Part shown: positions 310-55,880 of the stretch, in pieces | Layout: each line of letters starts with the position of its first letter | How positions within the stretch are numbered: the first letter of the stretch is position 1 | From: Eledone cirrhosa | Lineage: Eukaryota | Reading direction: 5' to 3' | DNA length: 64,000 nucleotides | NCBI GenBank assembly: GCA_964016885.1 | Contig: OZ024752.1 | Location: forward strand, 36,022,001 to 36,086,000 | Translations under genes and position numbers: made by a program | The notes under the pieces: model-generated | What the model was told of the DNA's origin: nothing | What the model saw: the letters and a program-made list of their open reading frames with translations, nothing else | The model's database searches: none

Positions 310-487
310 GTTTTAATATAGATGAGATTCTACAGGACTAGAACTGTTTCATTCTTTAGAAATCATCAGGAATCTGGGTATCAAAAAATAAATATGTAGA
401 ATCTCATCTATATTAAAACTTTTATACTCTGCAATGTATTGAGTACCTTACTTACTGTGGTTACCTCCGATTCAACCCGGAATAACG
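310..487 (+). mobile_element. Penelope-like pseudo-LTR end, family A (inverted arm + direct arm + tail)
   Basis: Near-identical copies at 7682-7813, 21997-22190 and 42245-42401 (-); all flanked by (TA)n; inverted arm always ends at ...tattaaaac. Confidence 0.8.
325..375 (-). ncRNA. Hammerhead ribozyme, type I (family A)
   Basis: Minus strand: agauuc-CUGAUGA-uuucu aa agaau-GAAACAG uucuaguc CU-GUA-gaaucu; stems I, II and III all pair. Confidence 0.85.
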
Positions 488-773
488 TATATATATATAT
501 ATATATATATATATATATATATACGTGGAGAAATATATAAAGGAGAACAAACCGTTAAAACATGTTTATTTAAAATAGCACCTACATACGTTTCGCTTCT
601 CAAGGGCATAAAAAACTAAAAAGCGTTCCTTAGGTGACCCGGAATATATGGGGTGGGATATGTATAGCTACTGTTGCTCAGAGAGTGGGATTGGCTCAGT
701 GCTCAGTCTTTCCTCACTTTTAAAAAATCCACGCACAGGCATCGCACGATAGCATTCATTGATAGTTATTAAT

Positions 774-940
774 AATTTTTCTACTTTTTGGCACAAGGCC
801 AGCAATTACCTAGTACATTACTGGTACTTTATTTTATCGACCCCGTAAGGATGAAAGGCAAAGTTAACCTCGGCGGGATTTGAACTCAGAATGGAAAGGG
901 TCGTAACTCTATGCGTCAAAGCATGACGTCCGACCCTCTA
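774..940 (-). mobile_element. tRNA-derived SINE with Meta-like central domain
   Basis: B box GAGTTCAAATCC; central gcctttcatccttacggggtcgataaaataaagtaccag; 3' end gtagaaa(c)aatt; many copies in the window. Confidence 0.85.
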
Positions 941-1074
941 CCGATATATATCGATAACGAGGGGACAGCCATCATGTAAAACTATATTCATTGAGTAATC
1001 AATGAACCATATTAATCTTTGGTCATATATATATATATATATATATATATATATATATATATATATATATATAT

Positions 1075-1292
1075 TTGCTTTTATCCTTCTATGTTGTTTA
1101 CTTGTCTCACTCCCTTTACGCGACTCACTTGTCACAATAGCTTTTTTTAGTTATTGCTCGCACCAACCTGAGGTATATGATTTTTAATGCGATGAAATAC
1201 CAATGATAGTTGGCAAATCACTGACGAGGGACTAATTTTATAATATGTAACCCATGTGCAACCACGCAGTATTCCTCTTTCTTCTTATGTTT
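1075..1292 (+). mobile_element. (TA)n-embedded Penelope-like end with variant hammerhead-like motif (family M)
   Basis: ccaac-CUGAGGU...GAAAU accaaug AUA-guugg; homologous to 35455-35660 and to the foldback copy at 45301-45523. Confidence 0.6.
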
Positions 1293-1410
1293 TATATATA
1301 TATATATATATATATATATATATATATATATATATATATATACAACAACCAGCGAAGGACGCGTTCCGGTCTTGTCCGACAGACAACCTTTTCCCCCACC
1401 CCGGAAAAAA

Positions 1411-1446
1411 CCCCAGTTGATGGATGTGAATCCGAAATATATAGGG
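1411..1446 (+). ncRNA. Degenerate minimal hammerhead
   Basis: ccc-CAGUUGA-u ggau guga aucc-GAAAU AU AUA-ggg; stems intact but two core substitutions; lies in TA-flanked insert 1342-1655. Confidence 0.5.
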
Positions 1447-1699
1447 ACTATTAAATCTCTCCCAAGGTAACTCTCTCTTGTGTTGTTATTTCTATGTTAT
1501 CCTTTATACTCTTCCCTTCATTCTACACATCTCACACATCTTATACACACCACGCATCTCAACGTACACCCACTTACATCTCTCTCTCCACCACCGGACC
1601 TTGTTACCCGGAGATTTACCCATTTGCATTGTCGAGGCTTCCAAACGACTTAAAGATATATATATATATATATATATATATATCCATATATATATATAT

Positions 1700-51916: not shown

Positions 51917-52268
51917 TATGAGGGTCGGCTGAAAAGTTCATAGACTAAAAAAGTTGGCAGGCTAACCAAGATACCCTCATGGAATGACCAAATGAAGTTT
52001 ATTCTTCAACATAATCCCTGGAACGAATATAGTTATTAATAAGAAGAGTTGAAATTAATTGTTTCTACTTTAGGCACAAGGCCAGCAATTACCCAGTACA
52101 TTACTGGTACTTTATTTTATCGACCCCGTAAGGATGAAAGGCAAAGTTAACCTCGGTGGGATTTGAACTCAGACTGTAAGAAGAGTTGAAATTAATGCAT
52201 GCAAGATTTCACAGTTCTAGCATCGTTCCTACATAGTCAGCCCATGAACTTTTCAGTCCGCCCTCGTA
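51917..52268 (+). mobile_element. Mariner-type MITE containing a SINE insertion (52060-52176, -)
   Basis: TIRs gagggtcggctgaaaagttcat / atgaacttttcagtccgccctcgta; 20-bp TSD taagaagagttgaaattaat. Confidence 0.85.
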
Positions 52269-53022
52269 TATTTATATATATATATATATATATACATACC
52301 GTAGATCATTAGATATACTAAATACACATACATATATGTATACAACCATGTTGAAGCGAACACCTTGATTATATATATGTGTGTGTGTGTGTGTGTGTGT
52401 GTGTGTGTGTGTGTGTGTGTGTGTGTGTGCGCGCGTGTGTGTGTGTGTGTGTGTGTGTGTGTGTGTGTGTGTGTGTGTGTGTGTGTGTGTGTGTGTGTGT
52501 GTGTGTGTGTGTGTAGAAGTAGTTCCACTTCAGTTAGTTCACCATACCGAGAACAAATGTTTCACCTTATTCGAATTCTCAGCTCGGTATATATATGTAT
52601 GTATATATATATATATATATATATATATATATATATATATATATATATATTAGAAAATGAGGTTTTTTCTTTCAAAAATGAAAAAAAACGAGATGTCCTA
52701 CACGAATGAAAGTATAAGGAAAAAGATGAACTGCGAAACCGGTAAAGGAACCAAATAAATATTCTTAAAAAGACTCCAGTTGCATTTTCGATTTCAGCTT
52801 TTTTCCTTTTATATATGTATATATATATATGTGTGTGTGTGTGTGTGTGTGTGTGTGTGTGTGTGTGTGTGTGTGTGTGTGTGTGTGTGTGTGTGTGTGT
52901 GTGTGTGTGTGTGTGTGTGTGTGTGTGTGTGTGAAAATTAATTTTTCTTTCCCTTTTTATTTTTAATATTATTACTATCCCTATTTGTACAATTGTGCAA
53001 CTTAACAATATTCTGCATATCC

Positions 53023-53060
53023 GCAATTGACAATGCATTTAATGCTGAAACCGGTATTGT
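53023..53060 (+). ncRNA. Minimal hammerhead, U3:A8 variant
   Basis: gcaa-UUGACAA-u gcau uua augc u-GAAAC CG GUA-uugu then aauaaa. Confidence 0.7.
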
Positions 53061-53841
53061 AAATAAATTAATGTTTTGATATTTCACTGAAAAAAATCTC
53101 TTCAACATTTTCTACTGAAAATTTTTTTTTCCTTTTTACTATTTGTTTTTATATATATATCAACTGGTGTGTTACTTTTCTACATTCGATACATATATAT
53201 ATGTGTGTATATATATGTATATATATATATATATATATATAACAAAGGAATTGTGGTAAGGAACCAGATGGACCATAACGCACCAGAGTACTTAATACTT
53301 AGGGTAGTAGAGTGGGAAATAGGAAAAAGTATGACCCCCGACGGCAGAGCTCAAGCCGTTTCGGCGGCTAATTCTGGACTCAGAAATAGCCGTCGAAACG
53401 CCAAGAAACCGAGATAAGCACCGGCCAAATTAGCCTTCTGGCACATATATATACACACACACACACACACATATATATATATATATATATATATATATAT
53501 ATATATATATATATATATATATATATATATATATATATATATATATATATAGGAACGAGTAGGACCCCGACGGCTGAACTCAAGCCGTTTCGACGGCTAA
53601 TTCAGTCCAGAATTAGCCGTCGAAACGGCTTGAGCTCAGCCGTCGGGGTCCTACTCGTTCCTATTACCCACCCTACTACCCTAAGTATTGAGTACTTTGG
53701 TGCGTTATGGTCCATCTGGTTCCTTACTACATTTCCTTCGTTATATATATATATATATATATATATATATATATATATATATATATATATGTGTGTGTGT
53801 GTGTGTGTATATATATATATATATATATACACACACACACG

Positions 53842-54184
53842 CAAGGGTCGGCTGGAAGTTTCATAGGCTGACCAAGATACTCTCATGGAATGATCAAATG
53901 CGGTTTAGTTTTCAACATAGTCCCTGGAAAGAAACAATGCAGTTATTAATAAAAAGAGTTGAAATTAATGCATGCAAGATTTCATAGCTCTAACATCACT
54001 CCTTCATAGGCTGACCAAGATACTCTCAACTTAATGAGGTTTATTTTTCAACATAGTCCCTGGAAAGAAATAATGCAGTTATTAATAAAAAAAAGAGTTG
54101 AAATTAATGCATGCAAGATTTCATAGCTCTAGCATCACTCCTACATAGTCAGCCTATGAACTTTTTTTTCAGCAGACCCTCGTA
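53842..54184 (+). mobile_element. Mariner-type MITE
   Basis: Both TIRs and two internal units. Confidence 0.8.
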
Positions 54185-54426
54185 TATTTTAAACACTTCT
54201 TCAGATGTAGTTAATTGATTTAGGGGATAAATATAATTATTATCTTGACATTTGAGTCGTTTTGATATTTTGACATTTTGATATTTTGGTTACGATTGTC
54301 GTCTAATTGTCTCAAAATCTTAAAATATACATTGAACGGGGTGAAGAGGAGAGGGGTACTTATTTCCTTCTTCTATAATATACATAGTTTGAGGTTATTC
54401 TTGTTGATAATATCAATAGTAACCCT

Positions 54427-55140
54427 AGGTTAACTTTGCCTTTCAATCTTGCGGGGTCAATAAAATAAAGTACCAGTAATGCACTGAGGGTCGATTTAAT
54501 CGACATGCCCTTCCCCAAAAAATGGTTGGCCTTGTGCCTAAATTATTATCATTATTACGGTGGATTGGCAATATCGGTAGAGGGTCGGACGCCATGCTTT
54601 CCAGCATAGAGTTACGGCCCTTTAGAAATCATTATTACGGTGGATTGGCAGTATCGGTAGAGGGTCGGACGCCATGCTTTGGCGCATAGAGTTACGGCCC
54701 TTGCCATTCTGAGTTCAAATCCCGCCGAGGTTAACTTTGCCTTTCATCCTTACGGGGTCGATAAAATAAAGTACCAGTATGCTGGCCTTGTGCCAAAAGT
54801 AGAAACAATTATTTATTTCAAAATACTCAAATAAATTTTTGTAGAATAAAATTATATAAAAATGATAAAGAATTTAGTATTTAGTTGAACAAATAGAAAA
54901 AGAAAGTATTATTGGAAAGGACTATTGGGCGGTTGGTTGGAAAGGACAAAGGGCGGTTGATTGGCAGTATCAGTAGACGGTCGGACGCCATGCTTTGACG
55001 CATAGAGTTACGTCCCTTTACGACCTGAGTTCAAATCCCGCCGAGGTTGACTTTGCCTTTCATCCTTACGGGGTCGATAAAATAAAGTACCAGTAATGCA
55101 CTGGGTAATTTGCTGGCCTTGTGCCTAAAGTAGAAACAAT
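54427..55140 (+). mobile_element. Cluster of Meta-like SINE copies
   Basis: Copies or fragments at about 54427, 54558, 54638 and 54950. Confidence 0.8.
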
Positions 55141-55880
55141 TATTGGAAAGGACTATAAATGCTATAAATGAGAGGAAAGGAAAGAGGGGGAAAAGATTAT
55201 TAGACAACAACAAAAAAATGGCAAAGGGGGTAGGGTGAGACCCAACACCTATGTCAGAGCAGTAATTATATATACACAATACACACACACACAAAGAAAG
55301 TGTGGTAAGGAACCAGGTGGACCATAACGCACCAGAGTACTCGATACTTAGGGTTGTAGAGTGGGTAATAGGAAAAGAATAAGGACCCCGACGGCTGACC
55401 TCCGGCCGTTTCGACAGCTAGATCCGATCTAACTGTCGAAACGGCCGGAGCTCAGCCGTCGGGGTCCTGACTCTTTTCCTATATATATATATGTGCGGGG
55501 GTGGGGGGGGGTCTGTGGGTCTCTGTGTGTGTGTGTTATGTTTGTAAGTTATTACAATGAGCTCGCATCTTACGCCACCAGTCGGTCCGCCCTCAAAGCT
55601 GCCACGTAATTAGAAAAAAAACCATTATGTTCAAGAAAAACCCCTTATATAAAAAGTACCTATGTACATCGATGTTTTGAAAGGGACATGACATCGGGTT
55701 CTCTGAGGAGGGGTTCTGGAAAAGAATGATAACGGGAGAGATTCCAGTTTGGCGCCGAATGACGTTAAAATGTGCAGCTTTTTCGAGTTTTATAAGAGTA
55801 AATAGAATATTTTCCGACAGCATGTATTTAAAACTGCAGTTTAAAATCGTGTAAGATCAGGGAATCATTGGTATTATATA

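Follow-up and report, generated by a model that had tools for sequence, protein, structure and literature searches.

The closest described relatives of the sequences reported here are Penelope-like elements (PLEs) of the Hydra and Neptune clades, both of which were published as hammerhead-bearing inserters into (TA)n microsatellites (PMC8557442). According to Craig et al. 2021 (PMC8557442), (TA)n is the preferred target of PLEs, hammerheads lie near the 3' ends, and inverted truncated copies and tails occur; the (TA)n preference was also given for Hydra-1_Obim of Octopus bimaculoides. PLEs are annotated in Octopus both there and in a repeat study of Octopus vulgaris (PMC13282606), which lists 31 recently active families, and 235 Rfam hammerheads were given for the giant squid genome (PMC6962438). 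The subject of this study is a 64-kb stretch of the Eledone cirrhosa genome, hereafter called the window (contig OZ024752.1, positions 36,022,001 to 36,086,000; C12:36022001-36086000 of the 2.996-Gb assembly). An initial annotation of the window, made from the letters alone, had described about 20 type I hammerhead folds in short inserts bounded by TA/CA runs. Our reading, held at a probability of ca. 0.85, is that these inserts are retrotransposed PLE ends of at least two clades, Hydra-type and Neptune-like.

Minimal type I hammerheads of metazoan PLEs were described by Cervera and de la Pena 2014 (PMC4209133), who called the 4,000–9,000 motifs of the richest genomes remarkable and gave low activity in vitro. 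Those motifs share with the present ones a palindromic helix III, many families per genome, a preponderance of single motifs, opposite-strand pairs 100–700 bp apart, and the U3-A8 variant. For Poseidon PAc of Anolis carolinensis, a PLE of another clade, in vitro work by Frangieh et al. 2024 (PMC11167929) placed tails between two internal reverse transcriptase (RT) start sites, and both target strands were extended with uncleaved RNA as the template. A TATA box and initiator in a pseudo-long terminal repeat (pLTR) were reported by Arkhipova 2013 (PMC3846280), together with self-priming and the use of pLTRs in trans; Drosophila Penelope has a TATA-less internal promoter (Schostak 2008, PMC2377424). 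In the literature on non-LTR retrozymes, which also carry type I hammerheads in high copy, 126,247 hammerheads were counted in axolotl (Cervera and de la Pena 2020, PMC7229834), and more than 6,000 of type I, in 16 families, in Acropora (PMC7229834; Li et al. 2026 preprint).

The window was searched with two descriptors. The strict one (CUGANGA core, stem II of at most 40 nt) returned 9 folds, compared with 0.02–0.05 in 100 dinucleotide shuffles. Because long helix II inserts and U3-A8 cores were present at the 20 annotated coordinates, the descriptor was widened (core CUGANGA or UUGANAA, stem II of at most 200 nt, stem I of at least 4 bp). It then returned 21 type I folds, against a mean of 0.25 in whole-window shuffles (maximum 2, n=60) and of 0.45 when 300-nt blocks were shuffled (maximum 3, n=60), so the similar counts in shuffled sequence that would have spoken against the annotation were not found. 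Four of the folds were of the U3-A8 kind (0.07–0.15 in shuffled sequence). Seven control cores were run on the window; four had no match and three had one each, among them the real variant at 15960. Sixteen of the 20 annotated coordinates passed the wider descriptor, and the other four proved to be partial or variant: 5256 has a stem I of just 2 bp, as do its family members; 15960 is a complete fold with a CAGAAGA core, fixed in most family copies; at 20648 the 5' strand of stem I is gone; and at 45807 stem I is absent in 7/7 copies. The CUGANGA core, said to be kept throughout, is not universal: of the annotated sites, 5256, 32055, 41947 and 53023 have U3-A8. Five matches were additional (7699, 19044, 22357, 24961 and 62052). 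The last was dropped as a chance join between a host CUGAUGA and a truncated half of family I, leaving 20 kept folds.

These folds have the C3-G8 or covarying U3-A8 pair, the GAAA, the UH, the three helices and the open helix I of type I hammerheads. As motifs they were confirmed; as self-cleaving ribozymes they are putative. Among the 150 matches listed of 200 in an Rfam scan of the window (E<=1), no hammerhead family was found; these best 150 were all hairpin-type matches with scores below gathering. The density of one fold per 3.2 kb agrees with the annotated figure of roughly one ribozyme per 3 kb. A (TA)5+ run lay within 150 nt of 18/21 folds (30.5% of non-repeat background positions) and within 190 nt of 21/21, in a window where (TA)n runs are plentiful. 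The inserts, which low-complexity masking was suggested to hide, are not themselves low-complexity; they are TA-bounded as described, but not all are short, the longest reaching 1.6 kb.

A sample of 39 unselected 10-kb tiles at round coordinates, taken from the assembly other than C16, C28 and the small contigs, was used to gauge the rest of the genome. It held 75 folds in 389.4 kb (one per 5.2 kb), compared with 1–4 in ten shuffles. (TA)5+ was found within 200 nt of 55/75 tile folds (background 30.8%) and within 100 nt of just 22/75 (background 20.9%); the weak enrichment at 100 nt is partly due to 18 folds that sit in two tandem arrays. Element 3' ends in the tiles allowed a sharper test: 45/47 of them have (TA)4 within 30 nt downstream, compared with 194/6239 background positions (3.1%). 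The commonest ends in the tiles were those of families F and A (14 and 10 per 389 kb); F also occurs 8 times in the window.

Every traced family turned out to be the pLTR of an element that codes for RT and/or GIY-YIG. A GIY-YIG search of the genome gave 10,597 candidates, of which 150 were scored; from these and from the upstream walk proposed in the initial annotation, coding parents in this genome were traced for seven window families (A, C, D, G, H, J and L). Twelve of the 20 annotated sites match the ends of elements with RT and/or GIY-YIG, and a thirteenth (8039) is tied to a PLE parent by 78–84% similarity; the proposal of a TA-targeting Penelope-like system was thus upheld. Several features that define PLEs were found: RT and C-terminal GIY-YIG in one open reading frame (ORF), direct pLTRs with a hammerhead (L100 and L172), and an inverted 5'-truncated copy with an optional tail. 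Both Pfam families (RT and GIY-YIG) were matched in L100, L102, L103 and L110. The description of the families as unrelated was overstated, in that all traced ones are PLEs, four are built on one stem I/III design and two have a tail motif in common.

The parent of family L is L100, in which a 938-aa ORF with RVT_1 and GIY-YIG matches, having a new start codon after the upstream repeat, is flanked by two direct pLTRs that are 96–97% identical to 31917–32142 of the window, U3-A8 hammerhead included. Family G lies directly behind L100-like ORFs (L116 and L118). Proteins of the L100/L116 type have DKG, YLDD, a Cx4CxxC linker and CxxC inside GIY-YIG, as in the Neptune clade, for which a published microsatellite bias was ascribed to the linker (PMC8557442). 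Of the features by which Neptune is recognized, the Cx2-5CxxC linker and the endonuclease CCHH were found in both L100 and L116, with the second His absent in L100 and present in L116. By these motifs families L and G appear Neptune-like, although Nematis has a similar linker; both use a U3-A8 core, which sets them apart from the published clade.

Walking upstream from families C, A, D and H led to a second protein type (YRDD, DKT, CxCx5C, no CCHH, CxxC/CxH near the end), ca. 24% identical to the first, whose ORFs were recognized by motifs and tblastn. Parents were L163, L165 and L169 for family C and L173 for family D. The parent of family H, L172, has a 654-aa ORF between two direct pLTRs that lie 7.1 kb apart and match the window family H at 98.9% over 754 nt. 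Family J is contiguous behind the ORF of L160. For family A, an endonuclease, a microsatellite untranslated region (UTR) and a hammerhead lie on one strand of L159; L160 and L162 have this island too, and the parent was seen by its endonuclease end only. DKT was read in L031 (H), L165/L170 (C) and L173 (D); in the parents of A and J, which are truncated, it was not seen. The CxCx5C linker, the lack of CCHH, and CxxC plus CxH around E and N were found for C, D and H; J has the linker also, and for A the linker was read by eye from the DNA and CxxC was found. The N-terminal RWK was seen in L171, a family outside the window; the N-termini of the five window parents were not recovered. Among Atlas neighbours of L031, HTH_animal occurs in 25–31% of members. 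Families A, C, D, H and J can accordingly be called Hydra-type insofar as their motifs match the published definition of this clade of endonuclease-bearing (EN+) PLEs, which likewise has canonical hammerheads and inserts into (TA)n (PMC8557442). They differ from it in size, since published families are generally below 3 kb (a tendency, not a strict criterion) and H is a 7.1-kb unit with a 3.6-kb microsatellite UTR; in stem II, which measures 90–115 nt in H and J compared with the 7–17 and 35–50 nt spacers of the published core search; and in number, with at least five abundant families here and one octopus family in PMC8557442.

Two further observations were made alongside. At L032:6410-9926 a U3-A8 hammerhead pLTR, together with an inverted copy of it, lies ahead of a Hydra-type ORF, which shows that the U3-A8 core is not restricted to Neptune-like families. 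At L110:3644-5074 and L119 the genome has a third type of PLE, marked by YVDDI and YVGST and by the lack of an internal CxxC linker like that of Neptune.

The inserts of the window are as follows (coordinates and strand in the window).

309–487, plus: family A (Hydra-type) fold-back between (TA)n runs; hammerhead 325–375 minus (inverted arm), tail plus; parent endonuclease L159/L162.
4625–4818, plus: family F fold-back; U3-A8 hammerhead 3' half, broken inside stem II, and tail; upstream half in L055.
5059–5399, minus: family G (Neptune-like) 3' end; near 5256 a U3-A8 hammerhead with 2-bp stem I; 88–96% to sequence directly behind GIY-YIG ORFs (L116, L118, L073).
6026–7661, plus: family H (Hydra-type) fold-back, arms of ca. 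750 nt; hammerheads 6080–6233 (minus) and 7319–7472 (plus), 115-nt stem II; 98.9% over 754 nt to both L172 pLTRs.
7681–7813, plus: family A short fold-back; hammerhead 7699–7745 (minus), stem I shortened at the junction.
7845–8154, minus: fold-back of family B, a relative of D; hammerhead 8039–8104 (plus); 78–84% to the D parent.
15915–16120, plus: family I insert; hammerhead 15960–16010, CAGAAGA core; parent untraced.
17781–18889, minus: family C (Hydra-type) fold-back; hammerhead 17908–17978 (minus), mutated copy 18781 (plus).
19043–19207, plus: family J (Hydra-type) insert; hammerhead 19044–19160, 90-nt stem II; start at parent TATA+30.
20521–20713, minus: family C end, truncated inside stem I (site 20648).
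21990–22188, plus: family A perfect fold-back, 4-nt loop; hammerhead 22012–22062 (minus); junction common to many copies genome-wide.
22312–22479, minus: family J insert; hammerhead 22357–22473.
24957–25112, plus: family K insert; U3-A8 hammerhead 24961–25062, 75-nt stem II; sole copy seen.
31917–32207, minus: family L (Neptune-like) fold-back; U3-A8 hammerhead 32055–32092; start at TATA+33; 96–97% to both L100 pLTRs.
32388–33592, plus: family D (Hydra-type); 1-kb inverted arm with hammerhead 32437–32502 (minus), short direct arm with tail; 94% over ca. 1050 nt to L173.
34506–34681, plus: family E insert; hammerhead 34570–34631; parent untraced.
41871–42020, minus: family L tail-less end; U3-A8 hammerhead 41947–41984; start at TATA+32.
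42245–42402, minus: family A subfamily fold-back; hammerhead 3' half only.
42476–42991, plus: family M insert; hammerhead 42687–42811, 98-nt stem II; parent untraced.
43638–43806, plus: family F-type fold-back, half motif.
44421–44856, plus: family C fold-back; hammerheads 44466–44536 (minus) and 44656–44726 (plus).
45138–45655, minus: two F-type tails (45138–45211, 45572–45655) flanking another TA-bounded insert.
45719–45930, plus: family N insert; at 45807 a core with stem II and GAAA, stem I absent.
46586–46718, plus: family F end, half motif and tail.
47198–47806, plus: family O fold-back; hammerheads 47259–47340 (minus) and 47544–47625 (plus), 51-nt stem II; parent untraced.
52650–52809, minus: diverged L-type fold-back, half motif.
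53023–53060, plus: U3-A8 hammerhead of G-like design; no blastn match to the G parent.
53242–53741, no single strand: two family F inserts (53242–53376 minus; 53549–53741 fold-back).
55291–55482, minus: family F-type fold-back.
62214–62357, plus: family I end, cut short within stem II; gave rise to the dropped composite 62052.

In traced families the hammerhead lies 50–200 nt before the element 3' end, and each family has two fixed 3' ends, one tailed and one tail-less. The tail-less ends fall at one base in L 7/7, H 4/4, D 15/19, C 7/10 and A 6/17 (overlapping loci not removed), and many inserts consist of a tailed and a tail-less arm joined head to head between TA runs. Two fixed 3' ends, which there match two internal RT start sites, and an AT-rich target are features of PAc as well; the tails measure ca. 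60–140 nt here and 30–40 nt in PAc (PMC11167929). Family F, once set aside as hammerhead-free until its stem III and upstream half were found, has a U3-A8 hammerhead with a 6-bp helix III that is nearly always broken inside helix II, and it accounts for many of the half-motifs noted in the initial annotation. Where the descriptor left the center of stem III free, it was Watson-Crick self-complementary in 13/15 multi-locus families; the estimated pairing probability of stem III in the monomer was at most 0.34 in all 20 kept folds. A palindromic helix III that forms poorly in monomer ensembles is as expected for dimer ribozymes. Most motifs, having a short palindromic stem III, would need a second copy or protein help to cut, and most genomic copies are probably dead passengers. 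The helix II region spans 59–115 nt in five multi-locus families, and those of the H, J and L171 families fold as a long hairpin in most copies; hammerheads with an 85–115-nt stem II do occur in coding elements.

The tails of A and F (435–460, 4756–4780 and others in the window) were observed to share a 10-nt motif ca. 45 nt before the 3' end in families otherwise unalike, and fold-back centers of both cluster at the same distance from it. It is possibly a protein-binding element; ten tails were folded and had no common structure. The CAGAAGA core (U4A) of family I is fixed at 15960–16010 and in 18 other copies, the helices being otherwise complete, and the family is in high copy. TA-bounded inserts with CUGANGA and no downstream GAAA half were seen at 1221, 35587, 45499 and 31577; GAAA lies upstream of CUGANGA in the first three, and no convincing permuted fold was found for them. 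The TA-bounded fold-back at 33–287 has long inverted arms, in which no hammerhead fold was found, and is likely another PLE end.

Some of the elements carry their own target. The 3' UTR of family H measures 3,623 nt, has 23 (TA)5+ runs, and is common to the C1 and C10 copies, which are 96% identical over 6.6 kb. Family A and the L102/L114 family have microsatellite UTRs too. The latter, a Neptune-like family (L102:3062-4700, L114:5110-6700), has a long TG/TA microsatellite in its 3' UTR with the same islands in both copies, and possibly a UUGACGA-core motif further down. In L160, L161, L162 and L171, the microsatellite UTR between inverted A arms holds insertions of other PLEs (J, C, F and Neptune-like fragments), which is nesting in the element's own target.

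The 5' ends of the inserts were compared with TATA boxes, searched as TATAWAW in 400 nt of the parent, with positions counted from the cleavage site. The parents of L, A and J each have a single TATAWAW there, placing TATA+30 at -72, -45 and -114, respectively. The 5'-most starts in tiles and window were -73, -73, -70, -69, -210 and -570 for L; -46, -45, -42, -66, -31, -26, -24 and +27 for A; and -114 and -119 for J. Hence 4/6, 3/8 and 1/2 starts, or 8/16 of these unselected inserts, fall within 3 nt of TATA+30. This suggests that the short L, A and J inserts may be run-off cDNAs that span the stretch between transcription start and internal priming site, and not products of random truncation, a step to which we give about even odds. 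Two other accounts of the 5' ends were discarded: run-off at the cleavage site as their main source, since junctions no more than 7 nt from the cut were few and form no main peak, and a fixed distance from the 3' end, since the hot spots are ca. 135 nt away from it in A, 165 nt in J, 215 nt in L and 340 nt in H.

The mechanism that we propose would run as follows. The GIY-YIG domain would nick (TA)n, by analogy with the anole PLE in vitro, and RT, with uncleaved RNA as its template, would prime at either of two internal sites a short way past the hammerhead. Head-to-head joining would then involve arms from both target strands or a single arm that folds back. As the pLTR would also be the start of the mRNA, priming there would copy only the stretch from transcription start to priming site, which happens to hold the ribozyme, and such copying together with ordinary 5' truncation could flood TA microsatellites with hammerhead-bearing ends. 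Each long insertion of a Hydra or Neptune element with kilobases of its own (TA)n in the 3' UTR might add fresh targets for later insertions, and this feed-forward loop could itself build the microsatellite-rich landscape.

Several results weigh against this account. Family D misses TATA+30, its starts lying at -4 to -29 and -83 to -96 where -49 or -37 was predicted; the C hot spot (-126 to -129) has no TATA box, and those of H and F are TATA-less as well; G has no cluster at its TATA+30; and in 16 further families (G included) starts were too few or unclustered. The 5' edge of the hammerhead falls at TATA+30 in both A and J, which leaves L as the one family able to tell a start site from a ribozyme stall. 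The start counts are small, and the transcription start would be read from insert ends. Families E, F, I, K, M, N and O and the 53023 motif (7/20 annotated sites) have no traced parent, and the clade names rest on motifs rather than phylogenetic placement. The H and F hot spots lie at what we take to be initiator-like motifs.

A reading with the same PLE origin, in which the folded hammerhead stalls RT, hairpins prime the fold-back and the transcription start is irrelevant, is a real though lesser contender. Direct-arm junctions lie inside the hammerhead span in A 7/10 (one a tandem duplicate), H 5/7, C 2/4, D 2/3 and L 1/3, fractions above a best-case exponential null of 0.15–0.33. Family F breaks inside stem II, where 21/30 direct arms match 13–20 nt upstream of GAAA and none more than 25, and self-priming at palindromic junctions has been proposed (PMC3846280). 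Stalling does not predict the L starts at -69 to -73, which match TATA+30 and precede the hammerhead edge by 35–39 nt, nor the C hot spot ca. 65 nt upstream of that edge. L and C thus favor a start site over a stall, whereas F and the junctions within hammerheads favor stalling. It is unlikely that the very short families A, F and I now spread as non-autonomous palindromes, transcribed and copied whole by PLE proteins in trans in the manner of miniature inverted-repeat transposable elements or short interspersed elements (SINEs). When the genome was searched with a family A query that spans the junction, the majority of the 30 best matches had one fold-back junction, at 99–100% identity on many chromosomes; F fold-back centers lie 77–82 nt before the tail motif in 12/16 measured copies, A and F are the commonest tile ends, and in-trans use of pLTRs is published (PMC3846280). 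That query itself selected for the junction, however; fold-back loops vary from one unselected copy to the next, a sign that a hot spot was hit independently, and this weakened the idea of one palindromic master for all of family A. In addition, A has a coding parent, and TATA-dependent families leave the TATA box behind.

The "retrozyme-like" part of the initial annotation does not fit the window, whose inserts are single or fold-back ends of coding elements, whereas retrozymes are same-strand tandems without an ORF. Retrozymes of that non-LTR kind, propagated as tandem non-coding hammerhead repeats via circular RNA, are a very improbable source: among the 20 kept folds there is no same-strand tandem, pairs are inverted, and seven families lead into coding elements. 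Tandem arrays do exist elsewhere in the genome, and an origin of retrozymes from PLE pLTRs has been argued for (Li et al. 2026 preprint). Same-strand arrays with no ORF were seen at L041:245-3387 (11 hammerhead copies, 310-nt period) and L054:449-3403 (7 copies at ca. 485 nt with a TA run in each), and five F-type matches at C2:356029898-356031746 are spaced at multiples of 299 nt; all three are retrozyme-like. Chance motifs in AT-rich, repeat-rich DNA are scarcely credible as the explanation. One of the 21 window matches was indeed a chance composite, and the 1–4 shuffled matches against 75 in the tiles imply that a few percent are false. Against this stand the shuffle counts above, five non-covarying control cores with 0–1 matches each, and the recurrence of motifs at fixed positions in coding elements.

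Stratified extrapolation from the tiles gave 6.0 x 10^5 folds genome-wide (bootstrap 3.5–9.4 x 10^5), or 4.5 x 10^5 (3.2–5.8 x 10^5) with same-strand neighbors collapsed to 58. Pooling all loci, including those picked by family searches, gave 267 folds in 54 clusters, 24 of them in at least two loci. The estimate of 4.5–6 x 10^5 compares with 4,000–9,000 per genome in PMC4209133, although fold counts from other genomes were made with other descriptors and are not strictly comparable; the very long helix II and the family-fixed CAGAAGA core were not found in the accessible text of that paper. Nor were inserts starting at the transcription start reported for PAc in that of PMC11167929. The initial observation is correct, and it concerns a known system at unusual scale. 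The novelty implied for it was too high, as the literature already had the preference for (TA)n, the position of hammerheads close to 3' ends, truncated copies in inverted orientation, genomes with many families, and U3-A8. What goes beyond the literature found is the extrapolated load of 4.5–6 x 10^5 folds, compared with 126,000 in axolotl, the long stem II, the self-carried 3.6-kb microsatellite target and the starts at TATA+30. In literature on hammerheads of octopus and other cephalopods, on long stem II and on copies bounded by a start site, we found no report of such density, of an 85–115-nt PLE helix II or of TATA+30 starts; subscription papers and supplements may hold them. A 2017 study reportedly dealt with variants of PLE hammerheads. 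A wider claim is offered tentatively, and we lean against it as a whole: that about half a million folds are the densest animal ribozyme load in the literature found, that they arise because internal priming in the 5' pLTR makes the first 130–220 nt of PLE mRNA the main insertion product (strong-stop-like), that self-carried (TA)n makes a feed-forward target, and that long helix II defines a class missed by published descriptors.

Other repeats were observed in the window. A short interspersed repeat with more than 25 matches (770–950, 10846–11024, 30951–31143, 37680–41490, 54550–55144 and others) is presumably an octopus SINE, from its octopod look. Coding fragments lie between TA runs at 5430–5940, 22747–23606 and 24535–24830, which we take to be a mariner-type transposase, a Tx1-type long interspersed element (LINE) end and an RTE-type LINE end, respectively. 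Long simple or minisatellite arrays occupy 9290–10500, 11050–12600, 25560–26400, 26500–27790 (a 90-nt tandem repeat) and 28020–28830.

The inserts bear on the mechanism of PLE transposition and on the role of PLE hammerheads. With dozens of coexisting families, each in thousands of short copies, this genome serves as a record of RT starts and stops, in which fixed 3' ends map priming sites, and promoters may be mapped by the 5' ends. The inserts keep sequence that lies upstream of the cut site, which implies that uncleaved RNA was copied in vivo, as it is in vitro for one lizard element. The motifs with a long helix II and variant cores are natural ribozymes to assay, and they imply that genome surveys undercount hammerheads.

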